A DNA stretch of 64,000 nt. Source: an uncultured Clostridia bacterium. GTDB lineage: Bacteria; Bacillota; Clostridia; Oscillospirales; Butyricicoccaceae. Below are positions 24,365-46,553 of this stretch, piece after piece; position 1 is the first letter of the stretch, and each line of letters opens with the position of its first letter. The stretch is taken from positions 153-64,152 of the forward strand of contig CALZUY010000004.1 of the NCBI GenBank assembly GCA_945829445.1, in the 5' to 3' direction. The notes under the pieces are model-generated. The model ran no database searches and had not been told where the DNA came from. It was given only the letters and a program-made list of their open reading frames with translations. The position numbers were made by a program, and so were the translations under genes.

Positions 24365-25160
24365 GCTTTGCAAGCTCTCCGTGCGCTTCGGCGACCAGGG
24401 CTGCCGGGTCAAGCGTCCCGTCCTCACCGTCCTTACCCAGATAGCCGAGAAATTCGATGTTGCCCTCCGGCCCCTTGATGGGTGAGAAGGTCAGCTGATA
24501 GACATGGAAACCCGCCTCATGTGCGTTTTCAATAAATGCCTCGAGTACTTCCTGATGGATTTCCGGCTCGCGAACAACGCCTTTCTTGCCGACCTTGCCC
24601 TTGCCTGCTTCAAACTGCGGTTTAATCAGGCAGGCAATGCGACCGTGCTCACTCAGCAGGTTCGCCACAACCGGCAGAACCAGCCGCAGTGAGATGAATG
24701 AAACGTCGATAACCGCAAACTCAGGAACCTCTCCGCCCAGCATATCCGGCGTGACATGCCGGATGTTGGTGCGTTCCATGCACACGACACGCGGGTCCTG
24801 CCGGAGCTTCCAGGCGAGCTGTCCATAGCCGACATCGATGGAAAACACCTTCCGCGCGCCGCGCGTCAGCAGGCAGTCGGTAAATCCGCCGGTCGATGCG
24901 CCGATATCCATAACACACAGCCCGGATGGATCGATTTGGAAATAGTTGAGTGCCTTTTCAATTTTCAGACCGCCCCGGCTGACAAAGGCGTTGGTCTTTC
25001 CGCGGATTTCAATCTCGGCATCCTCCGGGATGCTCATGCCTGCCTTGTCCGCTTTCTGGTTGTTGACATAGACAATGCCGCTCATAATAATGGCTTTTGC
25101 CCGCTCACGGGACGGCACCATGCCCTTCTCAAACAGAAGGACGTCCAGTCTCTTTTTCAT
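24354..25160 (-). CDS. tlyA: TlyA-family rRNA methyltransferase (YqxC)
   Basis: KKRLDVLL S4 domain, FVSRGGLK, DIGASTGGFTD, DVSFIS, LIKPQFE. Confidence 0.95.
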   Translation of the reverse strand: MKKRLDVLLFEKGMVPSRERAKAIIMSGIVYVNNQKADKAGMSIPEDAEIEIRGKTNAFVSRGGLKIEKALNYFQIDPSGLCVMDIGASTGGFTDCLLTRGARKVFSIDVGYGQLAWKLRQDPRVVCMERTNIRHVTPDMLGGEVPEFAVIDVSFISLRLVLPVVANLLSEHGRIACLIKPQFEAGKGKVGKKGVVREPEIHQEVLEAFIENAHEAGFHVYQLTFSPIKGPEGNIEFLGYLGKDGEDGTLDPAALVAEAHGELAKHDE

Positions 25161-27033
25161 GTTGCATGGCCTCCAGACATGTCGCGGCAATCCCGTTGCC
25201 GTCCAGGTGGTAATATTCATAAATTTGGCTGACAGCGCCCTGCGGGGCAAACGTATCGCCAGTGTTGCACAGCCTGATCCAGTGTGTCGCAATGCCGCTC
25301 TGCGCCAGCGTTTCCGCCAGCGCCTGACCGATGCTGCCCGCATGGACAACATCCTCGACAACGGCGACACGGCCGCAGTCTGCAATGCGCTGGAGCAGCT
25401 CTGCGGAAAAATTGGCTGTCAAGTCATTTAACTTTACAACGGCAGAAAAGACGCCGTTTTTCTCCAAAATATTGGCTGCTTCGAGTGTTTGGTTGATCAT
25501 TATGCCGTATGATACCAGCACAACATCAGTTCCCTCGCGCAGGCACGCGTCTGTGCTCTCACTGCGGTCATCTGTATATGCGCCTTCACCGCCGCGCGGA
25601 TACCGCAGCGCAATCGGGCCGGACAGATGCGCCACAGCCCGGCGCAGCATGCTCCGCAGCTCGGCAAAGCTCGCAGGTGCCAGCAGTGTCATGCCGGGAA
25701 TCTGGCGCAGGAAGCCGACATCAAACACGCCGTTATGTGTCGCTCCGTCCTCGCCGACAATGCCGGCGCGATCAATGGCGAGCACCAGCGGGATGTGGTC
25801 AATGGCGACATCGTGTATGAGCTGGTCATAGGAACGCTGTAAAAATGTCGAATACAGCGCACAGACAGGGCGCATGCCCTGCTTTGCCATACCCGCAGAC
25901 ATCGCGACAGCGTGTTCTTCCGCTATTCCGACATCAAAAAAACGTTCGGGATAGCGTTTGGAAAACGATGACAGGCCTGTACCGGAAGGCATCGCCGCTG
26001 TCACCGCACAGATTTTCGGGTTCTCCTGTGCGAGCTTTACCAGCTCCGCCCCAAATACTGCCGAAAAATTTGGCGCAGATTTTTTCAGCGGAAGGCCGGT
26101 ATCCACATCAAATTTGGAAACGCCGTGATATTTTTCCGGTTTCTGCTCGGCATACGAATATCCTTTGCCCTTGCGCGTCATCACATGGATGAGCACCGGC
26201 TTATTCATTTCCTTAGCGGACTGAAACAGCTGACACATGGACAGCACATCGTGTCCATCCACCGGTCCGAGGTAGGTAAAGCCCATTTCCTCAAACATCG
26301 GGCTGGGAAGCACGACAGATTTCACCGCACGTTTGGATCTGGAAATCAGATTGACTGCACCTTCGCCGCCCGGAATGTGGCCAAGTGCTGTCTTGACATC
26401 CTTCTTCATCTGAAGGTAGTGCGGACGGACACGCAGACGGCTCAGATGGCGGCTCATTGCGCCGACATTTTTGTCGATTGACATATTATTGTCGTTGAGC
26501 ACGACAATCAACGGCTCCCTGCTGCCTCCGGCAGAGTTAAGTGCTTCATATGCCATGCCGCCGGTCAGCGCGCCGTCGCCGATAATGGCGACAACAGAAT
26601 AATTTTTATGCTGCAGCGTACGGGCATGCGCCATGCCCAGCGCAACAGACACAGAACCGGACGCATGTCCGGTAATGCATGCGTCATGCGGTGATTCTTC
26701 CGGCTTTAAAAAGCCGGACATGCCGCCAAACTGGCGCAGTGCATCAAAGCCTTCACGCCTTCCGGTCAGTAATTTGTGGGTATAGCACTGATGGCCGACA
26801 TCAAAAATCAGCCGGTCTTCCGCTGAGTCAAAGCAGCGGTGAAGTGCAACGGTAAGCTCGACAACGCCCAGATTGGACGCAAGATGACCGCCTGTTTTCG
26901 AGACATGCTCGAGCAGAAATTCCCTGATTTCCGCACAAAGCTCGTCCAGATTCTCCTTTGACATTGTTTTGATTGCTGAGGAGAGATCTTCCCGGTCCAG
27001 CAGGCCGTACCGCATATGATTTTGATTTTCCAT
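25129..27033 (-). CDS. dxs: 1-deoxy-D-xylulose-5-phosphate synthase
   Basis: GGHLASNLG, FDVGHQ, GDGALTGG..EALN, IAEEHA, YSTFLQR, DRAG. Confidence 0.97.
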   Translation of the reverse strand: MENQNHMRYGLLDREDLSSAIKTMSKENLDELCAEIREFLLEHVSKTGGHLASNLGVVELTVALHRCFDSAEDRLIFDVGHQCYTHKLLTGRREGFDALRQFGGMSGFLKPEESPHDACITGHASGSVSVALGMAHARTLQHKNYSVVAIIGDGALTGGMAYEALNSAGGSREPLIVVLNDNNMSIDKNVGAMSRHLSRLRVRPHYLQMKKDVKTALGHIPGGEGAVNLISRSKRAVKSVVLPSPMFEEMGFTYLGPVDGHDVLSMCQLFQSAKEMNKPVLIHVMTRKGKGYSYAEQKPEKYHGVSKFDVDTGLPLKKSAPNFSAVFGAELVKLAQENPKICAVTAAMPSGTGLSSFSKRYPERFFDVGIAEEHAVAMSAGMAKQGMRPVCALYSTFLQRSYDQLIHDVAIDHIPLVLAIDRAGIVGEDGATHNGVFDVGFLRQIPGMTLLAPASFAELRSMLRRAVAHLSGPIALRYPRGGEGAYTDDRSESTDACLREGTDVVLVSYGIMINQTLEAANILEKNGVFSAVVKLNDLTANFSAELLQRIADCGRVAVVEDVVHAGSIGQALAETLAQSGIATHWIRLCNTGDTFAPQGAVSQIYEYYHLDGNGIAATCLEAMQHEKETGRPSV

Positions 27034-27070
27034 TATCCCTGAATCCAATCCGTATCAGGCAAATGCCTGC

Positions 27071-27676
27071 TTATTTTTTCCACGAAAAAAAGGCCAGCAG
27101 GCGGCCTACCAGAAAAACAATATCCTCACTGCGTGAAATACCCAATGTTTTTCCGACTGCCTTGCCGCCGATTGTCAGCGAAGCGACACAGCCTGTGATC
27201 GCAAGCGAAAGCAAAACCGACCGCAGATCTGCCGCATTATTCGTCAGATGTGTAATGATGACTGCGCTCGTCGCACCGGAAATAATACCGGAAATATCGC
27301 CGACAACATCATTGCAGAAGCTGCCAACCTTCTCTGCGTTGCGCACAATCCAGATCGCCTGTTTTGCGCCCGGCACCTTCCGCGCCGCCATCGAGTGAAA
27401 GCGCTTTTCCGACGAGGCCGTGGATGCCACGCCGATAATGTCAAAGATGATGCCAAAGCCGATGAACGCAAGCAGAATGACAAATGCCACAATATTGCCC
27501 ACATTCTCCAGCGCGCGCTGCGAAAGATACGACATGGTGACCGACATCAGGAAACTGACCACACTGATGGTCACAATCCATCGGACATTCACGCCGCCGT
27601 TCTGTTTGTTTTTTGTTTTTTTCTTCGGTTTGCCGGAATCACTGTCCAAGTGACCTGACCTCCATTTATCGTTCAA
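27071..27676 (-). CDS. oapA: OLE-associated protein A (OapA), DUF21/CNNM-like membrane protein
   Basis: ~200 aa, ~4 TM; KVGSFCNDVVGDISGIISG matches the recalled OapA DxxxD signature; FHSMAARKVPGAK; sits directly upstream of dxs-tlyA as in ole operons; TTG start with AGGAGG RBS. Confidence 0.85.
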   Translation of the reverse strand: MNDKWRSGHLDSDSGKPKKKTKNKQNGGVNVRWIVTISVVSFLMSVTMSYLSQRALENVGNIVAFVILLAFIGFGIIFDIIGVASTASSEKRFHSMAARKVPGAKQAIWIVRNAEKVGSFCNDVVGDISGIISGATSAVIITHLTNNAADLRSVLLSLAITGCVASLTIGGKAVGKTLGISRSEDIVFLVGRLLAFFSWKK

Positions 27677-27741
27677 TTTTGTTGTCCTCCTGAGAAGGAA
27701 GAGGCAATCTTAACGGCTTTCGGGCACATTAAGATGCTTAT

Positions 27742-27769
27742 ATCATACCATAAACAAAAATTTTGTCAA
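27742..27769 (-). promoter_or_regulatory. sigmaA-type promoter of oapA-dxs-tlyA-nadK-argR-recN(-tyrS)
   Basis: TTGACA-16-TATGAT with TG extension. Confidence 0.65.
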
Positions 27770-27842
27770 TGGAACGCGATTTGCTATTTCCCAATTCCGG
27801 TATCATTTCTTCCTGCGGTCTTCCAGTTGCTCCCGGCGCAGG

Positions 27843-28315
27843 TTGCATTTGATTATCCAATCCTATCCCACAGCATGGATGAACTTTGCGCTTGTTATCA
27901 TCAATCTGTATGATGTGAAAAAGCTGTTAAAGGGCAGCAAGCACGATCATTTCATTGAAAGCCTGCCAGATGACGCTTTCATCCGCTTTTTCTTAGAGAG
28001 CCATTTGGCTGACATCCATCAGTATTTCCCCGGCTATGCTACCTCTAAGAACTGAAAAAACATACATCGTCTGCTGTGGTGACACACCTGCGGGTGTTTT
28101 GATCGGAGAATCGGCGTCTGATGGGATTATGAACATCTCTCTCGATTATACAACGCCAATGTACAGGGATTGTTCGGTTGGCGAATATCTTTACAACGAA
28201 CTGAGACACTGCGGAATCAAAGAGCTTGTTTTGGTGTGATGCTTCGAAGCATAAAACTTATCTGAAAAAAATGGGCTTTGAAAAAAAGAATAATCTGTAT
28301 ATGAAGAGATTATAA
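27843..28315 (+). pseudogene. 5'-truncated, frameshifted YgjV-like membrane/GNAT-like gene
   Basis: Homology runs across three pieces: IIQSYPTAWMN... / YIVCCGDTPAG...LDYTTPMYRDCSVG / YLKKMGF..KNNLYMKRL; no start codon or RBS; family call from recall. Confidence 0.55.
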
Positions 28316-28328
28316 TTTAATTTGGCGG

Positions 28329-28372
28329 AAAAAAGCCGCATCCAATGCCGTTCGGCAGTTGGATGCGGCTTT
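28329..28372. terminator. Bidirectional terminator after guaD
   Basis: AAAGCCGCATCCAA/TTGGATGCGGCTTT inverted repeat. Confidence 0.8.
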
Positions 28373-28381
28373 CATCATGTT

Positions 28382-29662
28382 TCATGGAAAAATTTCTCTT
28401 CCGTGCACATATTTTTTCACGACATGGCATTGTTCAGATAAATGAATGATTCGCTCCAGCCTCTGATGAAGATTCAACTCCTGTGGATGTACCAGATCAT
28501 GGTCATCTATTACAACAGCGTCAAATTCATAGCCTGCTTCAAAACTGCCGACCTTGCCAAAGAAGCTGCCTCCTCCGATGGTGCCCATGTAGAAAGCCTC
28601 TTCCATCGTTAATGGCGGCGTCTGTTCGTCAACATAACGCCAGCGCAGTTTGGAAACAGCAATCGCATCCGACATCGCTTTCAGAATAGACGAGGATTCT
28701 CCGGCAGACAAATCGGTTGCCAGGCCAATTTTCAGCCCGTCATTCAGATATTTTTTTGCCGGTGCAATGCCGGAGGAAAGGTTTTGATTGGAAGCCGGGC
28801 TATGTGCAATCATTACACCGCCCTTTTTCATCAGTTCGATTTCGGCATCGGGACACCATACGCAATGTGCCATGATTGTCGGTGTATTTCCAAAAAGTCC
28901 CCATTTTTCGTAGGCGTGTCCATATGTTTCTGCCCAGGGACAAAGCTCCTTTACCCATGCGATCTCTGACTGGTTTTCTGACAAATGGGACTGTACAGGC
29001 AATTGGTACTGCGCTGCAATATGCCCCAGCTCCTGTAACAGTTCATCTGTACAGCTCGGGACAAACCGCGGCGTTAGCATGGGTTTTGTTCTGCTGTACC
29101 GCCCTTCGATCTGTTCCAGCCATGTGATCGTGCCTGCAATTGAATCTGCCGTACTTTCCACAAGCCCTTCCGGACTGTTCCGATCCATATTGACCTTGCC
29201 GACATATGTGCACAATCCGCTGCGTTCCAGTTCATCCATCAGCAAAACTGTGGCCGGCACATGAACGGTTGCGAAAATGCAGGCGCGTGTGGTCGCTCCC
29301 TGCTTCAGTTCACGGACAAACATGCCATACGCATGTCGAGCATACTCCAAATCGGCAAACTTTGTTTCCTCCGGGAACGTATAGGTATTCAGCCAGTCCA
29401 GCAGCTGAAGATCCATTGCCATTCCGCGATTGCCAAACTGCGGCGCATGGGTATGCAGATCGGTCAATCCGGGAATGACCACAGAATCACCGAAATCATA
29501 TACCGGCAGATTGGAAAACTGCTCTGGCAGCTCATGGAACACACCGGCAGATAATCCATCTGCACAGACTGCATAACAGGATTCTCCACAGAATACAGTC
29601 TGGGAATCAACACTGTAGCAGATATTACCTTTTAATACAAAGCTGTTTTGTTGTGATGACAC
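28382..29662 (-). CDS. guaD: Guanine deaminase (amidohydrolase)
   Basis: PGLTDLHTHAPQ, TPRFVPSC, QSHLSEN, HSPASN, LATD. Confidence 0.88.
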   Translation of the reverse strand: MSSQQNSFVLKGNICYSVDSQTVFCGESCYAVCADGLSAGVFHELPEQFSNLPVYDFGDSVVIPGLTDLHTHAPQFGNRGMAMDLQLLDWLNTYTFPEETKFADLEYARHAYGMFVRELKQGATTRACIFATVHVPATVLLMDELERSGLCTYVGKVNMDRNSPEGLVESTADSIAGTITWLEQIEGRYSRTKPMLTPRFVPSCTDELLQELGHIAAQYQLPVQSHLSENQSEIAWVKELCPWAETYGHAYEKWGLFGNTPTIMAHCVWCPDAEIELMKKGGVMIAHSPASNQNLSSGIAPAKKYLNDGLKIGLATDLSAGESSSILKAMSDAIAVSKLRWRYVDEQTPPLTMEEAFYMGTIGGGSFFGKVGSFEAGYEFDAVVIDDHDLVHPQELNLHQRLERIIHLSEQCHVVKKYVHGREIFP

Positions 29663-30116
29663 AGCAATTCAGCCTCCTTTCCATATGCAAAGCATTGCAA
29701 TCCTGTTTCATCCATTTTAACAGAGAATGGACCGGCAAGTAAAGCATGGTACACGTTGTTTCTGCAATCAGCGTGGTTTTAAATTCCTCGATGCTGTTCA
29801 GCGCTTCCATTGTACCGAACATCTTAACGGGTGTAAAGTGCGTGTAATGACATTCAATATTCATAATGCGGTAATCCACCGCGCGCACCTTTCCGTCCAA
29901 TAAGAGATAGACGCGGTCAACAGGATCTCCTTCGTGAATGAAGGCTTGATTGGCATCGACCGTGAGAATATGGATATCTTCAAATAACCATATCGGTGCA
30001 TTGTGCAGCAGTCGAAAAAGATAATCCGCCCGTTCATCCGGAAGCTCTTTTATCAGCTGTGACAATCGTCCCTGACTGCTTAACATGTGATCTTTTTCCA
30101 TGAGCTTCTCCTCCAA
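29625..30116 (-). pseudogene. Crp/Fnr regulator truncated after the cNMP-binding domain
   Basis: FIHEGD.V.RVYLLLDG and FGTMEAL..TTLIAET beta-barrel; no HTH; ORF runs into the guaD RBS. Confidence 0.65.
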
Positions 30117-30129
30117 TGCTCCGCTGAAA

Positions 30130-31317
30130 TCAAAGCAAACGATTTAGCAGGGAATGTCCAATGGTATTTTCCGGCATTGGAACGCCGAAATTCTCCGCAA
30201 TGGTAGCGCCGATGACGGCAAAGGTATCCTGCTCCTCCAGTTCCCCGCTTCCCTGCATCGAGGGCGACCAGGCAAGAAATGGAACCTTTTCACGGGTGTG
30301 GTCGGTACCGGTATAGGTCGGATCATTGCCATGATCCGCAGTCAGAATCAGGAGATCATCCGCCTTCAGCTTGGGCAGCAGATCGCCCAGCTTGCGGTCA
30401 AATGCCTCAATTTCACGCGCATATCCGTCCGGGTTGCGGCGATGTCCCCAAAGGGCATCGAAATCAACCAGATTGACAAAGCACAGACCGGTAAAATCTG
30501 TATCCGCTGTTGCAATCGTCTGCTCCATGCCGTGTACAGAGCTTTTGGATTTCTGCGCATTGGTAATGCCTTCCTCTGCAAAAATATCGACAATTTTTCC
30601 GATGGAAAGGACATCATAGCCGTGATCCTTCAGTACATTCAGGACAGTACGTCCATATGGTTTGAGGGCATAGTCATGGCGGTTGCTCGTGCGCTTGAAT
30701 TCCCCTTTTTTCTTTCCGGTATACGGGCGTGCAATGACGCGACCAACCTTCCACTCGGGGCGCATGGTCAGCTCGCGGGCAATTTCACAATAATGATACA
30801 GATTGTCCAGGCCCATGGTCTCCTCATTGCCGCACATCTGCAAAACAGAATCTGCAGATGTGTATACAATCAGATGACCGGTTGCAATTTCCTCTTCCGC
30901 CAGCTCCTCAAGAATTTCTGTGCCGCTGGCGCTTTTATTGCCGATGATTTTGCGTCCGGTGCGCTTTTCCAGTTCCGCAATCAGCTCCGGCGGGAATCCG
31001 GTATCCGTAAAGGTCTGAAATGGTTCCGTAATGTGCAGCCCCATCATTTCCCAGTGTCCGGTCATGGTATCCTTGCCGCAGCTGCGTTCGCACAGCTTTG
31101 CGTAATAACCCATCGGATTTTCGGCAGGGTTAACCTGTACCAGCGGGTGCAGATTTGCAAGCCCCAGCTTTTGCAGGTTCGGGATGTTCAATTCCGGGAC
31201 ACTTTGCGAGATATGTCCCAGTGTATCAACACCGGTGTCACCATATTCCGGAGAATCCGGCATGGCACCGATCCCAAGGGAATCGAGCACAATGGTAAAA
31301 ATGCGTTTATATTTCAT
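30130..31317 (-). CDS. deoB: Phosphopentomutase
   Basis: [51 protein letters not shown]. Confidence 0.97.
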
Positions 31318-31401
31318 AAAAACTCCTTTTCCGTCCGAATAATCCGGATCGCTGCGATGCGGATGGAGCCGAAGCCCACTCTGTTCGCAGTAAATTGGAT
31401 G

Positions 31402-31755
31402 TTAGTGGGAACCTTTCTTATAGGGAACGCCATTTGCCTTCGGGGTTGCAGAGCGTCCCACAAAGACGACAAGAATGATAATGGTAAGCACGTACGGAAT
31501 CATGCTGATAATCTGTGACGGAATCAGTTCACCCCCGCCGAGGATAACAGCCAGAGCCTGTGCACAGCCAAACAGCAGGCATGCGGCATATACACCGTGG
31601 GGCTTCCATTTGCCGAAGATGACTGCTGCCATCGCAATAAAGCCCTGGCCGGAAATTGCTGTCGGTGAAAAGTGTGAAATAATGCCCAGTGTTACGGTTG
31701 CGCCGCCAAAGCCTGCGAGTACGCCGGAAAGCGTGGTGCAGACATAGCGGTACTT
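31402..31755 (-). pseudogene. C-terminal fragment of nucleoside ABC permease (NupQ/RnsD type)
   Basis: KYRYVCTTLSGVLAGFGGA...GQGFIAMAAVIFGKWKP...PYVLTIIIL...PKANGVPY with no start. Confidence 0.85.
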
Positions 31756-31930
31756 GACTGGTCATTGATACCGCCCGTATCTGTAACCATCGTTACTTTA
31801 AATCAATCTGCGGAACACATGTGCTTCCCTGCTGTTCTTCCAGCTTTTTGTGCTGCCGATTTACAGCCAGTGAGCAGCATGCATCCAGCTATGGCTGCAC
31901 AGCGGCATTGCAGCATTTTCCTTTTTTCAT
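31756..31930 (-). pseudogene. N-terminal fragment of BMP-family nucleoside-binding lipoprotein
   Basis: GGAGG RBS, MKK, lipobox-like LLTGC, FKVTMVTDTGGINDQS; frameshifted and cut at 31756. Confidence 0.8.
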
Positions 31931-31948
31931 GATGATTCCTCCCTGCGC

Positions 31949-32661
31949 TTACAGCTTTATCGCTGTTTCCAATGCAACACCAATCATCTGGCCAAACGTG
32001 CTGCGGCGTTCATCGGCTGACAGATGGGTATCCTTATAGATATGATCGGAAACAGTCATCATTGCCAGCGCCTGCTTGTGTGCCTGTGCCGCATTCAGAT
32101 ACAGTGCAGCGACCTCCATCTCGGCACACAGTACGCCCATCCTGCGCCATGCATCGTTGTAATTGGGATTTGCATTGTAAAATACATCCGATGTAATGAC
32201 ATTGCCGACATCCACCGGAATGTTCTGTGCCTGTGCCGCTTCAATTGCCGCCTGCATAACCGGATAGCTTGCAATGGGAGCAAATGTTCCCGGCAGCTGG
32301 AACTGTGCGGCATAGTTTGAATCGGTGCATGCGCCCATTGCAATCACCAGATCACCCAGCTCCATATCATCCTGCAGCGCACCCGCAGAACCGATGCGAA
32401 TGATGGTGTCTACATCATAAAAATGATACAATTCATAGGTGTACAGTCCGAGCGACGGCATTCCCATGCCGGCACCCATAACAGAAACTTCCCTTCCCTT
32501 ATAGGTGCCGGTGTATCCCAGCATGTTTCATACTGAATTGAAACATTTCGCGTCTTCCAAATAGGTTTCCGCGATCAGTTTTGCACGCAGCGGATCTCCC
32601 GGCATCAGCACAGTCTTTGCGATTTCGCTTTTTTTGCGGCATTGTGTGCAGTCGGTGTCAC
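31949..32661 (-). pseudogene. deoD: Purine nucleoside phosphorylase DeoD, inactivated
   Basis: [10 protein letters not shown] / [15 protein letters not shown]...FNSV*NMLGYTG...GMGMPS...EME; -1 frameshift near 32627 and TGA at 32528-32530 where Arg is conserved. Confidence 0.85.
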
Positions 32662-33443
32662 ACTCTTTTCTCCTTTTCTCGCTCTATCAGCTTCCCGATT
32701 GCTCTGACAGCAGTTCTCACTGCCAGATCGGTATCATGTGCCTGCGGATTGCTCAGCCCGCGCTTTGCACGCTCCTGATTGGCGAGCACCAGCAAAACCG
32801 TACCAATTCGTACACGCAGGCAGCTTGCGACAACAAACAGTGCAGCGGATTCCATCTCAGACGCCAGCGCGCCGCACCGAATCCATGCTTCCCATTTGTC
32901 CATCAGCTCGTAGCTGACCGGCTTGACTTCCGGCTCATGCTGGCCGTAAAAAGAATCTTTGCACTGCACAACGCCGACATAGTGTGTTGCCTTCAGTTCT
33001 TCAGCAGCTTCCGCGAGCGCCTGAACCACTGTTACATCAGCAACAGCCGGGAACTCAATCGGTGCATATTCCTTGCTGGTACCTTCCATGCGGATCGCAC
33101 CGCTCGCAATGACCAGATCTCCGCCCATAATCTCCGGCTGCATACCGCCGCTCGTCCCAACACGGATAAAGGTATGTGCACCGCAGTGCACCAGTTCCTC
33201 CAGCGCAATGGCTGCGGAAGGACCTCCGATTCCGGTGGAAGTCACGCTCACCTTTGTACCGTTCAGTTCACCCGTGTATGTCACAAATTCGCGGCTGTCA
33301 GCCATCAGAACAGCGTTGTCGAGATATTCCGCAATTTTTTTGCAGCGCTTAGGGTCGCCTGTCAGGATCACATAACCGCCAACCTGATCCGGTTTCAATC
33401 CGATATGATACTGATAACCAGAGCCTTCTGCATAATCAATCAT
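32658..33443 (-). CDS. udp: Uridine phosphorylase
   Basis: [38 protein letters not shown]. Confidence 0.95.
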
Positions 33444-33908
33444 ACTGTCTCCTCCTCTGTCTGTTTCGGGATTCTCTTACCTCATCGAGTCTTATTTTTC
33501 TGCATTTGGTTGCAACACTATGCACATCAGAGTACAATGTCTCTTACCATTTTAACCTTACCCTCTGATTTTGTATAAAATGTTAATTTTCATTGCACTC
33601 AGACCGTCAAATTCAATGAGCTTGCATAAAATATATCACTTTCTCAAGAGGCGAAAAAGGACACATGTCCCTTTCCGTTTCTTTTCTATAGTTTATACAA
33701 ATTTTGGAACAAAGTTTTGTATAGATACACAAAAACACATTGCAGATGTCTAAACCAGTGAAAGATTAAGGTTTTATATATTTAGGACAGACTTTTCTGC
33801 GGTTTTTATGATACAGCCCCGGTCTTCGCCCCGGCGTATTCCTCCGGTTTCCAATTGTTTGCATCCGTTGCTGATGTATGTTACAATACGGGAAACTACA
33901 TCGGAGGA

Positions 33909-34373
33909 ATGGATATGAAAAAGATTTACCTTGCAGGCTTTGATGTATTTTATCCGGATGCAATTCAACGCGGTGAGCGGATGAAGGCTGCGTGCAAAGA
34001 ACGGAATCTGTGCGGGCTGTTTCCATGTGATAATCACGCGGACAATGCCCATGACATCTTTCAGGGAAATGTGGATCTGATTCGTCAGGCAGATATCGTT
34101 GTTGCAAATTTAAACTGGTTCCGCGGACAGGAAATGGACTGCGGAACAGCATTTGAAATCGGTTATGCATATGCCATGGGCAAGGATATCTGGGGGTATC
34201 TCGATGATGATACGCCAATGGTGGAACAACTGGGAGAAATAGATGAAAACGGCTTTTCCGTGGAAAACTTCGGTGCTCCTGTCAACCTCATGATTGCACA
34301 ATCAAGCCATATTGTTTGCGGTTCCTTCACTGACTGCCTGGATGCCGTCAGGAAGCATCTGGATGAATCCTGA
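33909..34373 (+). CDS. Nucleoside 2-deoxyribosyltransferase family protein
   Basis: KIYLAGFDVF, ADIVVANL, DCGTAFEIGYAYAMGK, NLMI; GGAGG RBS. Confidence 0.9.
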   Translation: MDMKKIYLAGFDVFYPDAIQRGERMKAACKERNLCGLFPCDNHADNAHDIFQGNVDLIRQADIVVANLNWFRGQEMDCGTAFEIGYAYAMGKDIWGYLDDDTPMVEQLGEIDENGFSVENFGAPVNLMIAQSSHIVCGSFTDCLDAVRKHLDES

Positions 34374-34496
34374 AGAATAATTGGAAGCTGTAATCCCCTT
34401 TGATATATATAATTATAACACATTTGGAGCATGTGCGGTCACCTGCAATATTCCGCTCATGATATGCTATCGAAAATCAGCGATGAGTCATCTTGA

Positions 34497-34555
34497 ACAC
34501 AAAACACCGAACCGCTGCAAAACAGCAAATGGTTCGGTGTTTCATTTTGTGTTTT
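34497..34555. terminator. Bidirectional terminator between ndt and hppA
   Basis: AAACACCGAACC/GGTTCGGTGTTT inverted repeat between convergent genes. Confidence 0.75.
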
Positions 34556-34607
34556 GACTATTTAACCCGGACAGTGGACAGAAAAACTCTCACGATCTCG
34601 AAAGCCC

Positions 34608-36776
34608 TTATTTTAACAGGCTGCTGATCCAGCTCCAGAGATTGTACTGGCTGAAAATTGATACTGTGACCAGGGAGATATTTGCCATAATTTTGATGAA
34701 GATATCCAGACAGGGACCTACGGTATCCTTTAACGGATCACCTACGGTGTCACCGACAACAGCGGCCTTGTGTGCTTCCGAGCCCTTGCTGTGCCCTTCG
34801 ATTGCTCCGGTTTCAATGTACTTTTTGGCATTGTCCCACGCACCGCCCGCATTGCCGGTAAAAATAGCCAGCATGATAGCACAGATGGTAGAGCCGATCA
34901 AAATACCGCCGACAAATTCAGGGCCAAATACAAAACCACACAGGACAGGGACAATCACTGCCAACAGGGCCGGAACCTTCATCTCACCGATGGCACCTTT
35001 GGACGAAATTTCAATACATGTCTTATAATCCGGCTTGGCAGTACCGGCCAGAATACCAGGAATTTCACGGAACTGACGGCGAACCTCATCAACCATCTTG
35101 CGGGCAGCTTTGGCAACTGCTTCGATCAGGATGCCGGAAAAGATAAATGGAAGCGCGCCGCCGATAATAACACCGGCCAGCGTCATCGGGTTGATGACAT
35201 TTAATACCAGATCCGTGTTGGGATCATTGTAAGAAAAGATATACGAGATCATCAGTGCCAGAGCAGCCAGCGCACCGGAACCAATGGCAAAGCCCTTGCC
35301 GATTGCCGCAGTCGTATTGCCAACCGAATCCAGTTCATCGGTGATCTCACGGACTTGTGGATCGAGACCTGCCATTTCAGCGATACCACCGGCATTGTCA
35401 GAAATAGGACCATAGGTATCTACAGATACAGTAGCAGTTACGAAGGACAGCATGCCCAGAGCACTCATGGCAACACCATAAAAACCGGATACCGTGTATG
35501 CAATGATGATGCCGAGACCGAGCACTATGCAGGGCAGCATACAGGAACGCATTCCCAGAGACATACCCTGTGTAATGGTCAATGCAGTACCTTCCAGCGA
35601 TGCATTTGCAACCTTTTTGGTCGGATCATAGTCAGCGCTGGTATAATATTCAGCAATCATACCCATCAGGATACCGGCGACAATGCCGACCGCAGCACCG
35701 ATAAACGGAGAAATAAATCCGAGCTTGAAATTCAGGCCAGCCAGATTTTCTCCCTTGAATAACAGATATGTAACGACAAAACCAGCAATCAAAGTAATAC
35801 CGGCTGACAGCCATGTAGCTGTATTCAACTCCCGGTGCGGATGGTCAGAGACCTTTTTAAATAGAAGAAAAGCGATGCCAAGAATACATGCAATCAGACC
35901 ACAGCCTGCAAATGCCAGCGGATAAAGGTACAGTTTTTGCAGCATCTCGACAGAAATTTCACCGGTTGTAGCTGCGGAAGTGGCGTACAGATGGAATCCA
36001 AGTAATACAGCGGAAGAAATGGCGCCGACATAGCTCTCCAAAAGGTCAGAACCAAGGCCGGCTACATCGCCTACATTATCGCCTACATTGTCGGCAATTG
36101 TTGCAGGGTTGCGCGGGTCATCTTCCGGGATATTTGCTTCCGTCTTGCCGACCAGATCAGCACCCATATCAGCAGCCTTTGTATAGATACCGCCGCCGAC
36201 ACGGTTGAACATGGCGATGATCGAGCAGCCCAGCGCATAACCGGAAAAAGTCATTGTAAATGGAATAAATGTGACGCCCAGCCAGTTTGTATGCTCAGAC
36301 AAATCCTGCAACTGGCCGAGCCCGATGCCAAAGATGAGATATACAAGAAAGACGCCCAGCAGCGCGAAGCCACCTACACAAAGCCCCATGACAGAACCGC
36401 CCTGGAAAGCGACCTTCAGGGTATCGCCCAGGCTTTTGGTAGTACGGGCCTTATTGGATACACGTACGTTGGAATATGTAGCAATTTTCATACCGATGAA
36501 ACCGGCAGATGCGCTCATACCCGCACCGATGATAAAAGCAACTCCACACTGCCATGACACCGCAAGAGACAGCAGAATGGCTACAATGATGACAACGATA
36601 CACAATATGCGGTATTCATAGTGAATGAACGCGTTTGCACCCACGCGGATTGCAGACGCAATTTCAGACATCTGCTCCGTGCCTTCGTCCATTTTCTTTA
36701 CGGAGAAAAAGTTGAAAACGGCATAGGATAACGAAAGAACCGATGCAAACAAGACGAGAATCAACACACCATTCAT
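34608..36776 (-). CDS. hppA: Membrane pyrophosphatase, K+-dependent type (probable Na+-PPase)
   Basis: GGGIYTKAADMGADLVGK, EDDPRNPATIADNVGDNVGD, GNTTAAIGKG (Ala = K+-dependent determinant), GDTVGDPLKD. Confidence 0.95.
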   Translation of the reverse strand: MNGVLILVLFASVLSLSYAVFNFFSVKKMDEGTEQMSEIASAIRVGANAFIHYEYRILCIVVIIVAILLSLAVSWQCGVAFIIGAGMSASAGFIGMKIATYSNVRVSNKARTTKSLGDTLKVAFQGGSVMGLCVGGFALLGVFLVYLIFGIGLGQLQDLSEHTNWLGVTFIPFTMTFSGYALGCSIIAMFNRVGGGIYTKAADMGADLVGKTEANIPEDDPRNPATIADNVGDNVGDVAGLGSDLLESYVGAISSAVLLGFHLYATSAATTGEISVEMLQKLYLYPLAFAGCGLIACILGIAFLLFKKVSDHPHRELNTATWLSAGITLIAGFVVTYLLFKGENLAGLNFKLGFISPFIGAAVGIVAGILMGMIAEYYTSADYDPTKKVANASLEGTALTITQGMSLGMRSCMLPCIVLGLGIIIAYTVSGFYGVAMSALGMLSFVTATVSVDTYGPISDNAGGIAEMAGLDPQVREITDELDSVGNTTAAIGKGFAIGSGALAALALMISYIFSYNDPNTDLVLNVINPMTLAGVIIGGALPFIFSGILIEAVAKAARKMVDEVRRQFREIPGILAGTAKPDYKTCIEISSKGAIGEMKVPALLAVIVPVLCGFVFGPEFVGGILIGSTICAIMLAIFTGNAGGAWDNAKKYIETGAIEGHSKGSEAHKAAVVGDTVGDPLKDTVGPCLDIFIKIMANISLVTVSIFSQYNLWSWISSLLK

Positions 36777-37039
36777 ACTGAAACCTCCTTTGAACAACGA
36801 TATGTTGTTACAAAAAATATCTAAGAGAATTATATCATACGGAAGGTATTTTATCCACTTATTTATTATGAGAAAAGATAACGTATCATAAATGACCTGT
36901 GTAAGTGTCCAATCATTGCCCGCCGACCATACAAAATCCCGAATGCTTGCTGCATCCGGGAAAAGATCATGATTCCGTTAAAGCATGTATTAGATTGGGG
37001 TTTCAGGACATCAACTGTCCACATTCTCATTGGAAGATT

Positions 37040-37213
37040 TTATCCACATCCTTCATACAGTCCGGAAATCAAATCGTGCTGTTCAGGAGTATGAATATCT
37101 ATGGTACAACCAGATTCGACCTCACTCATATCATGATTACATGACACCATTTGAGAAGCGATATGGTTTGGTATAATTAGGTGGTGGCGTTACAAAAATG
37201 CTTGACCACTACA
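37040..37213 (+). mobile_element. IS3-family transposase 3' remnant with right inverted repeat
   Basis: Frame ending at 37176: AVQEYEYLWYNQIRPHSYHDYMTPFEKRYGLV* (WYN..RPHS....TP integrase-core tail), then GTTACAAAAATGCTTGACCACTACA ending in CA. Confidence 0.7.
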
Positions 37214-37363
37214 CAGGTTCTAGAATAAGAGTAATCAGAAAATCCAGTATAGCGCATCTCTTTGAGTGGAATAGATTATCGTCACTGTTTTTCTGGTATT
37301 GAGAAGATTTCGATCTTATTTTAGTATCAATTGAGCATTTACTTAATTTATTAAGCTCTAATG

Positions 37364-37409
37364 AAAAAGCACCGAATCAAAAGGGATTTGACCCAAATGA
37401 TTCGGTGCT
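37364..37409 (-). terminator. Intrinsic terminator downstream of ole
   Basis: AGCACCGAATCA/TGATTCGGTGCT stem followed by T5 on minus strand. Confidence 0.8.
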
Positions 37410-37424
37410 ATATTTTTAATCAAG

Positions 37425-38037
37425 GGTGGCAGCAGGCAGAGTAAATCTTACGGCTTGAGGTTCGGTTGGATTTCCCCGCAGGCGACCAGCCGTTGCCAGC
37501 TGGCGGTTTCCCATTATGGCCTGTGCCGGGTCGTCACCGATTCCGGGACCGAATTGCCACTTAGTCCGTACTGCAATCCTCTGCCTGCCCAATTACGACA
37601 GCCTAGGTGTTTTCCACGACAGTTGATCAGGTTCTTAGCCTCTTTTGCAAGAGAAGTTTCACAGATCGATACAGATTAAGCCATGGCCGTGGCATAAACC
37701 TGCGGATATCCGCTCCCCTTAACTCACTCAAGGCAGGCTACACTGCACACAGCGTCGTTGGACTCCAAAGAGTACTTTGCACCGCATTGCAGGTTCTTCT
37801 CCTGCCCCGTAAAGCATCCATCAATCCGAAGATGTTTAGGTGCTCCACAGCAACAGGTCTCCACGGAGAAAGGAATCATTCTTATGCCATTAAAAACTAT
37901 CCTAAATCCTTAACCCCCAGCATCCACCCCAAACTGGGCGTAAGAAGCAAACACCAGGGACTTCATCGATATGCCCGTCTACGGATTTTTAGGCCCGTCT
38001 TAGGAACGTGAAAAACTGACTAGAATACTGCGCCACC
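37425..38037 (-). ncRNA. ole: OLE RNA (ornate, large, extremophilic RNA), ~613 nt
   Basis: Minus strand reads GCAGTATTCTAGTCAG...GGGCCTAAAAATCCGT...GGGCATATCGATGAAGTCCCTGGTG...ACGCCCAG...GCTGGGGGTTAAGG...CCGTGGAGACC...GGATTGCAGTACGGACTAAGTGG...GGGAAACCGCC, blocks matching the recalled OLE consensus; 5' GGTGGCGCAG pairs with 3' CTGCTGCCACC; size and position after ispA are canonical; no credible ORF. Confidence 0.93.
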
Positions 38038-38044
38038 GCTACAT

Positions 38045-38073
38045 AATTTACCATATTGTTTGTAAATTTGCAA
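38045..38073 (-). promoter_or_regulatory. sigmaA-type promoter immediately upstream of ole
   Basis: TTGCAA-17-TAAATT with TG extension; predicted start site within a few nt of the OLE 5' end. Confidence 0.6.
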
Positions 38074-38112
38074 GTTGTCGTGCAATTTATTTACAAATTA
38101 TTCGCGATTGAT

Positions 38113-39003
38113 TCAGTATTTGCGCTCCGCCAGCGTGCGTGCAAGTGCCGGCAGCATACCGGCATCTGAAAACGGTGCCAATGCATGGATTGCCTGTTCT
38201 GACAGTTCGCGTACCAGTTCATGGCAGCGTGCAATGCCCAGCAGGGATGGGTATGTACTCTTACCGTTTTCTGCGTCCGAGCCAATCGGCTTGCCCAGTG
38301 CTTCCTCATCGCCCTCAATGTCCAGAATGTCATCCTGAACCTGGAACGCAAGGCCAATGCAACGCGCATATTCCAATGCAGCCTCTGTCTGTTCCGCGGT
38401 TGCGCCGCCGATCAGGCAGCCGAGCTGTGCCGCCACACAAATAAGGGCACCGGTCTTGAGTTCCTGAAGTGTTTTAAGCTGGTCAAGCGAAATCTGAGTT
38501 TCCTCCGCCTGCATGTCCAGAACCTGACCGCCGATCATGCCTTCCATACCGGAAGCACGCGACAGCGCGCGGATGGCCTTGAGCTGTACCTCAGCACCGA
38601 CCAGAGCTGTGTTTGCCGGATCAGATGCGGTCTCAAACGCCAGATTTAACAGACCGTCGCCCGCAAGAACCGCCATAGCTTCGCCATAGACCTTGTGGTT
38701 GGTCGGCTTGCCGCGGCGCAGATCGTCATCATCCATACACGGCAGGTCGTCGTGAATGAGTGAATACGTATGAATCATTTCCAATGCGCAGGCAAACGGC
38801 AGTGCTGCTTCGATATTCCCACCACTCAGACGGCAGAATTCCAGCACCAATGCCGGACGAAGCCGCTTGCCGCCTGCCATCGCAGAATAGCGGCAGGCAT
38901 CAAAAATTACACTCTGGCCTTTATCCTCCTGCGACTGCAAGTATTCCAGCAGCTTTTTTTCTACCATTGTGCTGTATGCCGCAAGCTGTTCATTCAGTGT
39001 CAT
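38113..39003 (-). CDS. ispA: Farnesyl-diphosphate synthase / geranyltranstransferase
   Basis: GGKRLRP, HDDLPCMDDDDLRRG, GQVLD, KTGA, FQVQDDILD. Confidence 0.96.
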   Translation of the reverse strand: MTLNEQLAAYSTMVEKKLLEYLQSQEDKGQSVIFDACRYSAMAGGKRLRPALVLEFCRLSGGNIEAALPFACALEMIHTYSLIHDDLPCMDDDDLRRGKPTNHKVYGEAMAVLAGDGLLNLAFETASDPANTALVGAEVQLKAIRALSRASGMEGMIGGQVLDMQAEETQISLDQLKTLQELKTGALICVAAQLGCLIGGATAEQTEAALEYARCIGLAFQVQDDILDIEGDEEALGKPIGSDAENGKSTYPSLLGIARCHELVRELSEQAIHALAPFSDAGMLPALARTLAERKY

Positions 39004-41841: not shown

Positions 41842-42049
41842 AGAAGTACCTCCGTATTGTGCCCGCCGTTCTGCGGCAGATCGGCACATTCATTTCGTTT
41901 TATGATTTATGCATTATTATACAACATATTGATGAGAATTGAAACCATAATCTGGTTTCAATCGGTATTCCTCTTTATAAATTGTTGTATTTGCTTTTCT
42001 GTCTTTCTCAGATTACAGGAACCACAATTCTTCCCGACGAAAAAGCCTG

Positions 42050-42093
42050 ATATAACAGAATAATTCTATCACATGGCAGGGCATTTGGCAAAT
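42050..42093 (-). repeat. Left copy of 44-bp inverted repeat, containing an outward promoter
   Basis: 37/44 identity (ungapped, counted by hand) to reverse complement of 44899-44942; minus strand TTGCCA-17-TAGAAT. Confidence 0.8.
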
Positions 42094-42104
42094 AGAAGGT
42101 GTAC

Positions 42105-42151
42105 AATAAAACCCCATAGACTGTGTGGTACACAAATCTATGGGGGTTTAT
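42105..42151. terminator. Terminator after mgtE
   Basis: AAACCCCATAGA/TCTATGGGGTTT inverted repeat. Confidence 0.78.
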
Positions 42152-42169
42152 TCATGATGATTGGGCCGA

Positions 42170-43582
42170 TTACAGCGTGCGGATCAGCAATGCCCATGCC
42201 AGACCATAGTAGGTCACAACTGCCACCAGGTCATTGATGGTGGTAATCAGCGGGCCGGATGCAACTGCCGGGTCAATCTTGAGCTTTTTAAATATAAGGG
42301 GAATGGTTGTTCCGCAGACACTGGACAGAATCATGGAAATCAACAGAGCAAAACCTGTACAGAAGGAAACAGAAAACGCAAGTGCTGCCGTCTCCCCTTT
42401 CAACAGGAATAAATACAGGCCAATCAATACAAAGGAGAGTGTGCCAAGGGCCAGGCCGTTACACAGGCCAACCCGCGCTTCCTTTGCTACGAGGGAAAGC
42501 TTCTGACGGAATGACAAATGCTCATCCATCAGCACCCGGATGGTAACAGCCAGGGACTGCGTTCCCACATTGCCTGCCATGTCCAGAATCAGAGACTGGA
42601 AGCAGACCACCAAAGTCAGACTCGCGACGACTTCTTCAAAAAGACCGACCACACTGGATACCAGAAGTCCCAAACCCAGCAGTACAATCAGCCAGGGAAG
42701 CCGCTTGGCAATGCTCTTCTTTAAGGGCTCCTGCAAATCTTCCTCTGCGGTCAGGCCTGCCAGCTTCGCATAGTCCTCTCCCATTTCCTCATCGACCAAC
42801 CGGGTAATGTCCTGAGCAGTCAGTACACCGGTTAGTTTATTCTGGGCGTCGAGTACCGGTATAGAGTCCTCAGAATAATCTTTAATCCGTTCGATACAGT
42901 CTTCTGTCTGTTCACTGGCGTAAACATACGGATAGGAAGTCACTGTGATCTCATCCAGTGCGGTTCCATCCCGGGCAATAATCAAATCCTTCAGATCAAT
43001 CGCACCGACCAGCGTTTCATCCTCGTCGACAACATAAATCGTAGAAATGTTGTCATTTTCAGCAGCCTGATCCACCAATTCCCGCATTGCCTGCCGAATG
43101 CCGATACCGGTATGGACAGAAATGAAGTTCGTGGTCATCTTGCTGCCGATTTCATCTTCGTCAAATGAACTGAGCAGTACAATTTCTCTCCTGACATCGG
43201 CATCCATCAGATCGAGAAGAATATTGCGTTCCTGCTTTTCCATCTGGCACAGATAATCTGCAGCAATTGCAGGTTCCAGCTGAGACAGGATTTCCACCTG
43301 CTTCCGAATACTCAGCTCTCCGATATAATCATTCAGCCTGTCCGAATAGGCAAGCACATTGGCCAAAGCCTGTGTTCCCAGCACGCTGTAGAGCTTGCAG
43401 CGTTCCTCTTTTTTCAGCAGTTCGATTGCTGCTGCGATATCATTTTCATGATAGGAAAGAATCCGATCCTCCATGAGCTTGGGCGTGAGATTGCTTCTTA
43501 CAATTTCCGCAATTTCGTTCTTATAATCGCGATGCTGTGTGGAAATTCCGATTCCTTCCGGATGATTCTTTTTTGTGTTCAT
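42170..43582 (-). CDS. mgtE: Magnesium transporter MgtE
   Basis: CBS pair, KRLPWL, MAGNVGTQSL, DPAVASGPLITTIND; GGAGG RBS before ATG 43582. Confidence 0.95.
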   Translation of the reverse strand: MNTKKNHPEGIGISTQHRDYKNEIAEIVRSNLTPKLMEDRILSYHENDIAAAIELLKKEERCKLYSVLGTQALANVLAYSDRLNDYIGELSIRKQVEILSQLEPAIAADYLCQMEKQERNILLDLMDADVRREIVLLSSFDEDEIGSKMTTNFISVHTGIGIRQAMRELVDQAAENDNISTIYVVDEDETLVGAIDLKDLIIARDGTALDEITVTSYPYVYASEQTEDCIERIKDYSEDSIPVLDAQNKLTGVLTAQDITRLVDEEMGEDYAKLAGLTAEEDLQEPLKKSIAKRLPWLIVLLGLGLLVSSVVGLFEEVVASLTLVVCFQSLILDMAGNVGTQSLAVTIRVLMDEHLSFRQKLSLVAKEARVGLCNGLALGTLSFVLIGLYLFLLKGETAALAFSVSFCTGFALLISMILSSVCGTTIPLIFKKLKIDPAVASGPLITTINDLVAVVTYYGLAWALLIRTL

Positions 43583-43956
43583 TGTCCTTCGCCTCCTTTG
43601 CACATCCAGCATAAAACGAATCGAGTGATTCGCCGTGGCAAAGTCAGGCATAGATTGGCTCCGTTACAGGCAAAAATGGGCATAAAAATACCATTGTCAC
43701 CTGTAATGCAACCTACGCTACACCTGCTCTGCAATGATGTAGTGCAGTTTTCAAACCGGACAATGGCGACCTATAATTGTTGGCGCAGCAAAGCGCCGTC
43801 AGAACACAGACGATATGCGGCTGCACAACTTCTGACAGTATAGGAATCCCATGCCCGAACTTCGACTACAACTACTACCGTCCATGATCTCACCTCACAA
43901 AAATGAATTTGCTGATTTCGTGTGTTCATTATATCAAATACCATCCTGAGATTCAA
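43583..43956 (-). promoter_or_regulatory. mgtE promoter and ~340-nt structured leader containing a 28-codon uORF
   Basis: TTGAAT-17-TATAAT at 43928-43956; uORF 43799-43885 with GAGGTG RBS; several stems. Confidence 0.55.
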
Positions 43957-44130
43957 GCAAAATTGTGCCTGCTATGAACAAGCCGGCTGTGCTCGCAACA
44001 GCCGGTCTTATCTTAATCATTCAAAATATGACCCATCTTCTGCTTGTATCACAATCATCTCTGGTTTAAAAAATCTTGATAATGCATACCGCACTCCGTT
44101 TCCGCAGACACTGTCCCAGAGGTGATTGCT

Positions 44131-44316
44131 ATGAAACTGGAACTTCCCCTCGGCTTCGGGATGGCACTGGCGCAGAATGAAGCCGCTATGAAAAAATTTG
44201 AATCGCTGACGGAATCTGAAAAACAGGCAGTTCTTCAGAAAACACACAGCGTCCGCTCCAAACATGAAATGCAGCAGCTGGTTTCCAGCCTTGATGCACA
44301 AAGTACAGTCGAATAG
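44131..44316 (+). CDS. Small hypothetical protein
   Basis: GAGGTG RBS; MKLELPLGFGMALAQNEAAM... Confidence 0.7.
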   Translation: MKLELPLGFGMALAQNEAAMKKFESLTESEKQAVLQKTHSVRSKHEMQQLVSSLDAQSTVE

Positions 44317-44355
44317 GATGCTGTTCCCGCGGCATACTATTTTCGGGGTGATGAT

Positions 44356-44526: not shown

Positions 44527-44612
44527 CTCCCGCCGCCATATGGCGGCTACATACTTCTTTTGTGACATGGCGGCCTGCTCTGACATACTCTGGTATATGG
44601 GAGGTCGATAAT

Positions 44613-44831: not shown

Positions 44832-44845
44832 CCACAGTGAACATC

Positions 44846-44878: not shown

Positions 44879-44898
44879 TATGGGCATTTGCCAATTTG

Positions 44899-46535: not shown

Positions 46536-46553
46536 AGAATAAAGGAGTTCCCT

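Follow-up and report, generated by a model that had tools for sequence, protein, structure and literature searches.

The OLE RNA gene and oapA are separated by unrelated genes in a Butyricicoccus locus and in related gut bacteria

Few bacterial non-coding RNAs of unknown biochemical function are as large and as well conserved as OLE RNA, and the near-constant position of its gene, ole, beside the gene oapA led to its protein partner, the membrane protein OapA. In the stretch of DNA studied here (64,000 nucleotides (nt) of contig CALZUY010000004.1, hereafter the window), from a pig-gut Butyricicoccus close to B. porcorum with about 90% nt identity to the type strain BB10 over oapA-recN, oapA is not immediately downstream of ole. 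The OLE match ends at 37410 and the oapA start codon is at 27649; the 9,760 nt between them agree with the ~9.7 kb given by a first-pass annotation of this DNA. Is this separation real, is it peculiar to this genome, and must a cell with such a locus balance the RNA and the protein in some other way?

In the literature oapA is called only 'the most common' downstream neighbour of ole (PMC12265935), a wording that implies exceptions to the adjacency; we found no literature description of such exceptions. The analysis below makes it likely that the split between ole and oapA is old and widespread, that each gene has its own signals while the cargo between them turns over, and that their linkage is weakly selected.

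The two genes and the continuity of the locus

The OLE RNA gene is full length: it matches Rfam family RF01071 over model positions 1-616 of 616 with 457.6 bits (gathering score 50; E 4e-131) and is the sole Rfam match within the 64-kb window. It directly follows ispA, with a gap of 60 nt between the ispA stop (38113) and the start of the OLE match (38052). The genes that define the locus are:

38113-39003, minus strand: ispA (farnesyl diphosphate synthase), the last gene before ole; Pfam polyprenyl_synt 205 bits, NCBIfam FPPsyn 349.5 bits
37410-38052, minus strand: OLE RNA gene, full length; Rfam RF01071
27071-27649, minus strand: oapA, 192 amino acids (aa), reading frame open back to 27676; assigned by homology and position before dxs
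25129-27048, minus strand: dxs, the next gene downstream of oapA; TIGR00204 709 bits

The flanking genes stand in canonical order, as had been annotated. ispA precedes ole and dxs follows oapA in the window. By the gene calls on L001 and on L099, a locus nearly identical to the window, xseB, xseA, tsaD and nusB are upstream of ispA, and tlyA, nadK, argR and recN are downstream of dxs.

Whether anything is split depends on the identity of oapA. Its translation probably begins at the TTG at 27649, behind a GGAGG ribosome-binding site, which gives the 192 aa found in database homologues. The product is 98-99% identical to B. porcorum proteins and 78-82% identical to the proteins encoded right after ole in L016, L020 and L028, in all of which dxs follows. 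The DxxxD motif, given as distinctive of OapA as opposed to CNNM domains (PMC11332333), is present as D114-V-V-G-D118 and is invariant in 11 homologues. The open reading frame (ORF) could instead encode another small CNNM/MpfA-like membrane protein, in which case nothing would be split; its only Pfam match is to CNNM (residues 67-199), which at 23.7 bits stays below the cut-off of 28.4, as it does for many homologues, and NCBIfam has no model for the protein. We hold this to be very improbable in view of the motif, of the identity to ole-adjacent proteins, of the position directly upstream of dxs, which is that of OapA everywhere in our survey, and of a length too short for CBS or CorC domains, neither of which is found. 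Judged by sequence comparison, the ORF at 27071-27676 is a true OapA orthologue, and the original call stands.

Inside the last oapA codons, just before dxs, lies a terminator-like hairpin with a T run (27094-27112, minus strand). It might serve as an attenuator between the two genes or simply follow from the conservation of the FFSWKK codons.

The first-pass annotation had also raised the worry that the region is an assembly chimera, in which two loci were wrongly joined at a repeat. There is an insertion sequence (IS) remnant near ole, and many metagenome contigs with OapA of the BB10 type (P0008) break 150-750 nt upstream of oapA. These breaks are accounted for by co-occurring strains or species that differ exactly at 27769 and 27667, where loose ends are seen. 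The NCBI assembly GCA_043426855.1 (L100) is 99.46% identical over 16.9 kb (window 45000-28114) and carries the ole junction and the whole intervening stretch in the same order. Identity to the window is 99.5-99.99% for L099, L100, L101 and L103; the European Nucleotide Archive (ENA) assemblies among them (L099, L101 and L103) agree with it, and L101 and L103 cover the junction between ole and hppA, the first complete gene after ole. Depth was even over the whole stretch, both junctions included, in four of four DNA runs, and single Logan contigs from separate runs cross from dxs and oapA through guaD to hppA (26500-36186 in X19 and 26500-36917 in X21). Because independent assemblies and DNA runs reproduce both junctions, the region is not a chimera; such an artefact is extremely improbable and the worry can be dropped.

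Junctions in related genomes

We surveyed 80 species-representative genomes encoding an OapA relative and located OLE, ispA and dxs in each. ole ends within ~250 nt of oapA in 68 of them, Bacilli, other Clostridia and B. pullicaecorum included, which bears out the premise that the two genes are normally adjacent. Nine loci are split, meaning that there is no OLE upstream of oapA in the available sequence (0.5 to 10 kb), and three contigs were too short. All nine split loci are Butyricicoccus-like, with an OapA at least 75% identical to that of the window, and in this closest group (~20 representatives) they face 11 adjacent ones. The distance between the two genes is 9.8 kb in the window and 20.6 kb in BB10 and exceeds 10 kb in other lineages, and the intervening genes differ almost entirely between the split lineages. 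The idea that the split is special to this genome did not survive this synteny check, nine of some 20 close representatives being split with different DNA.

Three types of junction were recognised in this group. In the abutting type the 3' end of ole is 30-60 nt from the oapA start, with no terminator between them (L020, L028, L035, L119); by survey coordinates, their junction sequences being unread, Bacilli and other Clostridia have similarly short gaps. Among the junctions that were read (L020, L028, L034, L035, L041, L048, L119) the spacer between ole and oapA holds no terminator hairpin. In the second type, found in human-gut relatives (L016-L018, L029-L032), the genes are adjacent and uncoupled: a spacer of 175 nt contains a terminator of -24.5 kcal/mol and a promoter, TTGACA-17-TAAAAT. 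The third type is the split. Like the window, the second type has a terminator after ole and, ahead of oapA, a promoter of the sigma-70 type, and it shares the ole promoter and the flanks; it differs in that nothing is inserted in its spacer of ~175 nt; its terminator and promoter are 54-60% and 52% identical to those of the window, near background, so their homology is not clear. Since these adjacent relatives already carry a terminator and a promoter, transcriptional uncoupling is independent of the insert.

One split relative is BB10, which is interrupted at the same two breakpoints as the window, with both ends on one contig. It shares with the window diverged copies of guaD, udp and a broken hppA (81-87% nt identity). 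In contrast, window 33456-34612 and 29689-32647 are without a match in BB10, where ndt, deoD, deoB and the cNMP-binding fragment were not found, and BB10 has additional blocks: sugar-ABC and two-component genes, an aldose epimerase, a heme/cobalamin-type ABC system and IS copies, with an extra IS in the complete genome CP178353.1. Its ole terminator is degraded, and another hairpin ~110 nt further on (-27.3 kcal/mol) stands in its place. Because the diverged guaD, udp and hppA occupy the same site in both, the inserted DNA predates the divergence of the window and BB10 (~10% in nt).

Further out, the L113-L115 lineage has ispA and ole followed by the same terminator hairpin (88% identical to that of the window) and then by 9 kb of unrelated genes. 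When the window insert was compared by tblastx with the other split loci, matches were confined to BB10 (guaD, udp, hppA) and to the promoter region, and a shared ancestry of the inserts across species was rejected.

Two other split loci have a pair of genes in common, a LysR regulator and a Na/alanine symporter with 77-78% nt identity (L113:16775-19681 and L036:6803-9606). The pair is 6-9 kb downstream of ole in L113 and immediately upstream of oapA in L036, which is phylogenetically separate. The likeness hints at a shared island history or at exchange.

These comparisons bear on a rival account, that a recent, private insertion newly uncoupled ole from oapA and that the cell then evolved a new way of balancing OLE RNA and OapA. 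The lower G+C of the insert, its IS remnant and fresh pseudogenes, and the adjacency of the two genes in most OLE-bearing species all suit that account. It does not fit nine related species representatives that are split with other contents, the diverged guaD, udp and hppA at the same site in BB10, the same ole terminator in L113, or adjacent relatives that already have a terminator and a promoter; nor does it fit an OLE RNA that appears far more abundant than neighbouring mRNAs (PMC3413148). The survey of relatives has largely refuted this version, which we consider quite unlikely, and favours instead an old split with a changing content.

Some members of the group may have gone further. In the metagenome-assembled genome GCA_030540435.1 (L116:10891-20891) and in L107-L109 (10891-20891 in each) a terminator and an opposite-strand DHquinase gene come within 80-95 nt after ispA, and the following 10 kb hold no OLE match. 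Elsewhere in GCA_030540435.1 (L025:1-1083) oapA is kept, with a promoter of the split type and an intact DxxxD motif, and there is no OLE in the 505 nt to the contig end. In these lineages ole might be free-standing elsewhere in the chromosome, or OLE RNA might have been lost with OapA kept for an RNA-independent function; we regard this as doubtful. Free-standing ole was also sought by scanning metagenomes for a conserved 3' pattern of OLE; the 12 loci obtained all have the adjacent arrangement. If true, the link between ole and its neighbour would be wholly dissolved in part of the Butyricicoccus group.

Transcription signals and RNA evidence

Promoters were scanned over 13 kb and scored against a 12-position consensus, with the start and stop sites of transcripts deduced from the sequence. 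The signals around the two genes are:

38045-38073, minus strand: predicted ole promoter, TTGCAA (38073-38068), 17 nt, TGgTAAATT (extended, -10 at 38050-38045)
37363-37409, minus strand: predicted ole intrinsic terminator, a 12-bp outer stem followed by U5; -25.7 kcal/mol, z -7.3; none of 200 shuffles folds as stably
28329-28373, minus strand: predicted guaD intrinsic terminator with U6; -31.6 kcal/mol, z -6.4, no shuffle as stable
27742-27769, minus strand: predicted oapA promoter, TTGACA-16-TGgTATGAT; 11/12, extended -10
27650-27735, minus strand: predicted oapA 5' leader of ~85 nt with a hairpin and a possible anti-Shine-Dalgarno segment, from folds and the deduced start

The promoters of ole (TTGCAA-17-TAAATT) and oapA (TTGACA-16-TATGAT) and the ole terminator are thus as first annotated. 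The position and core of the ole promoter (CTTGnAAA...ATATGGTAnAnT) are kept in split and adjacent relatives, across all three junction states, and its location corresponds to that of the experimentally active ole promoter of Halalkalibacterium (H.) halodurans (PMC3413148). Being conserved in adjacent lineages and shown in H. halodurans, the ole promoter is not a consequence of the split. No other site in the 13 kb matches the consensus as well as the oapA promoter, whose hexamers and spacing recur unchanged in BB10 and L009. Its -35 box (27769) is exactly where the window and BB10 become homologous again, and run X40 has a loose end at the same breakpoint.

Two observations adjoin these promoters. 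A motif, ATTGTAAATAAATTG, lies at 38084-38100 on the minus strand, ~10-25 nt upstream of the ole -35, and is kept in the window, L016, L029, L020, L113, L028 and L037, split and adjacent alike; it may be an UP element or a regulator site. In the oapA leader the hairpin is conserved, and a GCCUCU segment can pair with either an upstream AGGAGGA decoy or the true ribosome-binding site, with two compensatory pairs among the window, BB10 and L009 (three sequences only). An Rfam E-value search of the leader and junction (27550-28450) gave chance-level matches only. Translational control by this leader may be envisaged from its predicted folds.

RNA data were depths of assembled contigs from mixed-community gut metatranscriptomes, four pig/gut runs being used for depth and four further runs for the ends of oapA contigs. 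In the first four, OLE RNA contigs have a depth of 500-14,000 over 37437-38028 (bins 859/1657 in X3 and 5047/14270 in X4), against 0-20 for ispA, hppA, oapA and dxs in the same runs, that is, they are ~50-3,000 times deeper than the neighbouring genes. Depth is zero at the non-coding junction stretches 36748-37174 and 27781-28207. In the four further runs oapA contigs reach 27715, inside the predicted leader, and none lie in 27755-28600. As weak evidence, these contigs fit separate ole and oapA units. In three RNA runs the OLE contigs stop at 37437-37455, short of the terminator hairpin by ~30-45 nt and still within the Rfam match, which may reflect 3' trimming of the mature RNA or an assembly effect.

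The separated genes might still be co-transcribed, with the ole and hppA promoters reading through the terminators and the intervening genes into oapA, and the oapA promoter playing a minor part. Eight of the nine insert features are on the strand of ole and oapA, termination at intrinsic terminators is rarely complete, part of the OLE RNA of H. halodurans is co-transcribed with neighbours (PMC3413148), and run X3 has low, continuous depth over most of the island genes. Such transcripts would, however, have to pass two strong terminators (-25.7 and -31.6 kcal/mol) and stretches where RNA contig depth is zero, at both junctions in the first four runs and at the oapA junction (27755-28600) in the four further ones, and would leave without explanation a near-consensus oapA promoter with its TG, kept in hexamers and spacing in BB10 and L009 though everything upstream differs. 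We consider read-through as the main route to oapA unlikely. That ole and oapA form separate transcription units, as proposed in the first-pass annotation, is borne out in sequence by their own promoters and by the ole and guaD terminators, and the metatranscriptome contigs agree.

The preferred reading is then as follows. ole would be a stand-alone unit, started from a promoter found throughout the clade and stopped by the hairpin and U5 directly after the RNA. oapA would be read from its own near-consensus, extended -10 promoter through a leader of ~85 nt, probably as the head of an oapA-dxs-tlyA-nadK-argR-recN operon, with the guaD terminator shielding it from transcription of the island. 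With the ole terminator and the oapA promoter present first, the spacer would tolerate insertions at no cost, a pre-insertion state that may survive in the relatives with adjacent genes, and its gene content would turn over through IS activity, deletion and pseudogenisation. Selection on physical linkage would be weak because the level of OLE RNA is presumably set by its own promoter and stability and not by co-transcription with oapA. We infer the order of these events, the actual start and stop sites and the absence of read-through.

Intervening DNA, history and known systems

The insert breaks the usual ispA-ole-oapA-dxs cluster between the 3' terminus of ole and the ribosome-binding site before oapA, and the genes after hppA form a nucleoside-salvage cluster, partly decayed, that ends in the guaD terminator. 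Read from ole, the insert consists of the ole terminator, the IS3 remnant, hppA, ndt, udp, a deoD pseudogene, an ABC relic, deoB, a cNMP-binding fragment, guaD, the guaD terminator and ~560 nt of fragments:

36917-37324, strand not assigned: 408-bp segment with the C-terminal remnant of an IS3-family transposase, present in some strains only
37030-37176, plus strand: IS3 transposase C-terminal remnant (~50 aa); tblastn 58% identity to a Selenomonas IS3 transposase C-terminus, E 1e-6
34608-36797 (to 36857 with promoter), minus strand: hppA (membrane pyrophosphatase); Pfam H_PPase 816.9 bits, NCBIfam NF001954 1042.7 bits
33855-34373, plus strand: ndt (nucleoside 2-deoxyribosyltransferase), the sole opposite-strand insert gene; Pfam Nuc_deoxyrib_tr 117 bits
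32658-33443, minus strand: udp (uridine phosphorylase); TIGR01718 326 bits
31949-32661, minus strand: deoD pseudogene; an ORF of 191 aa is left, matching DeoD positions 46-235
31402-31932, minus strand: presumed nucleoside ABC transporter relic, a Bmp-type lipoprotein N-terminus fused to a permease C-terminus; motifs recognised by reading the sequence
30130-31317, minus strand: deoB (phosphopentomutase); NF003766 558 bits
29625-30116, minus strand: truncated cNMP-binding (Crp-like) protein without DNA-binding domain, overlapping the guaD start; ORF of 163 aa, only Pfam cNMP_binding, 44 bits
28382-29662, minus strand: guaD-like amidohydrolase (guanine deaminase family); TIGR02967 344.8 bits, below the cut-off of 375; Pfam Amidohydro_1 163 bits
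27770-28328: non-coding stretch of ~560 nt with plus-strand gene fragments; short ORFs only

This inventory agrees with the earlier one for hppA, ndt, udp, the deoD pseudogene, the nucleoside transporter relic, deoB, the Crp-like relic and guaD. The IS3 remnant had been misplaced: it lies at the ole end (37030-37176), where it also has weak Pfam rve_3/rve_2 matches (E 0.002-0.003), and was rejected for the oapA end, as 27770-28328 has no transposase similarity. That stretch has no Pfam family either; one ORF of 67 aa in it is 36% identical to a Butyrivibrio megaplasmid region. The 408-bp segment with the remnant is absent in L105 and in one contig of DNA run X19 and is thus a strain indel just downstream of the ole terminator. 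Relative to the intact 237-aa copy in L100, deoD has lost 1 nt behind an A7 run and carries a CGA>TGA nonsense change; its decay is very recent because it is intact in that 99.5%-identical assembly. The stretch at 31402-31932, in which no significant Pfam family was found, we take, by its motifs, to be a putative Bmp lipoprotein/ABC permease relic. hppA has its own predicted promoter (36829-36857, TGGATA-17-TATAAT with TG).

A discrete mobile island, transposon or prophage was considered for the insert and rejected. No integrase, tRNA or bounding direct or inverted repeats were found in the window insert, it has no match in plasmid or phage collections, and its only transposase trace is the ~50-aa IS3 remnant; lower G+C (0.42-0.52 against 0.53-0.58 in the flanks) is its only island-like trait. 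The sole notable repeat links the oapA and hppA promoters, whose -10 regions agree at 16 of 19 positions (27730-27748 and 36822-36840; GTATGATATAA...TCTTA); this may be a chance likeness of strong promoters or a duplicated promoter module.

A second variable junction exists upstream of nusB, at about window 41900-47000. L099 has mgtE and small ORFs there before nusB, BB10 a phage-type integrase with uvrA/uvrB, and other relatives spoIIIA-asp23 (L099, L121 and L016 were compared).

In a neighbour-joining tree of dxs, recN and OapA, split and adjacent lineages are interleaved with high bootstrap, and the split lineages are not monophyletic. At least one split is independent, since the L036 lineage falls within a group of adjacent relatives and its oapA promoter is a different one. 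A single origin of the split was considered and is not supported by the interleaved tree; the terminator speaks for it, and the promoter weakly so.

Several observations weigh against an old split with separate signals on both sides, or complicate its history. The RNA depths are those of community contigs, to which OLE segments conserved in other species can add and so inflate the OLE signal, and oapA itself has a depth of only 2-10. Apart from ndt, every insert gene is co-oriented with ole and oapA, and some read-through is possible. The ole promoter scores 8/12, a weak consensus match, and promoter-like sites total 23 against a chance expectation of 17.4 +/- 4.9, terminator-like totals likewise not exceeding chance; the case for the ole and oapA signals rests on their individual strength, position and conservation. 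No integrase, flanking repeat or plasmid or phage match delimits the insert as a discrete mobile element. Between the window and L113, which are well separated, the ole terminator is 88% identical, but it is degraded in the closest relative, BB10, and the oapA promoter cores of these clades are 61-72% identical against a background of 50-57%. The comparison of these sequences suggests that the terminator may be older than the window, L113 and BB10 clades, and it supports, for the terminator, a putative common ancestry of distant split lineages, for the oapA promoter only weakly so. The history could be one ancient split with re-fusions, several independent insertions, or recombination via the highly conserved flanks.

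It had been proposed that a natural split system needs another way of balancing its ribonucleoprotein (RNP) components. OapC is encoded elsewhere. So is OapB, another partner in the OLE RNP (PMC9723947), and in H. halodurans OLE RNA is very abundant and stable, its own promoter being its main source (PMC3413148). Most likely a split is tolerated because co-transcription never set the ratio of RNA to protein, and nothing suggests that a new balancing mechanism is needed.

That a group of gut bacteria keeps both genes intact and conserved, with separate signals and at 10-20 kb or more from each other, implies that the particle can be maintained with neither co-transcription nor tight linkage. 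The Butyricicoccus group offers a natural series for the expression of the two components, from abutting through adjacent and uncoupled to split, and flags lineages possibly missing ole. Butyricicoccus is a strict anaerobe with little genetics. The locus had been recommended as a clean target for separate knockouts, which adds little, separate knockouts of ole and oapA being available in H. halodurans (PMC3413148); with these and ectopic complementation already at hand, its practical value is limited.

Compared with the locus of H. halodurans and other Bacillota, the window has the same RNA family, the OapA DxxxD motif, an ole-proximal promoter, an OLE RNA that appears abundant, and the same surroundings, xseA-xseB-ispA upstream and dxs-tlyA-nadK-argR-recN downstream. 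It differs in the 9.76 kb of unrelated genes between ole and oapA, in the ole terminator, and in the oapA promoter and leader. With insertion hotspots between core genes it shares fixed breakpoints, strain- and species-specific cargo, IS remnants, pseudogenes and a lower G+C; unlike them it has no integrase, tRNA or flanking repeats, and its flanks are two genes of one ribonucleoprotein. The OLE RNA and OapA of the window are ordinary family members and their arrangement is a variant, a split that is real but moderately surprising. What is genuinely new is a clade with unlinked ole and oapA, an intermediate in which the genes are adjacent but uncoupled, and fixed breakpoints with fast-changing cargo between them.

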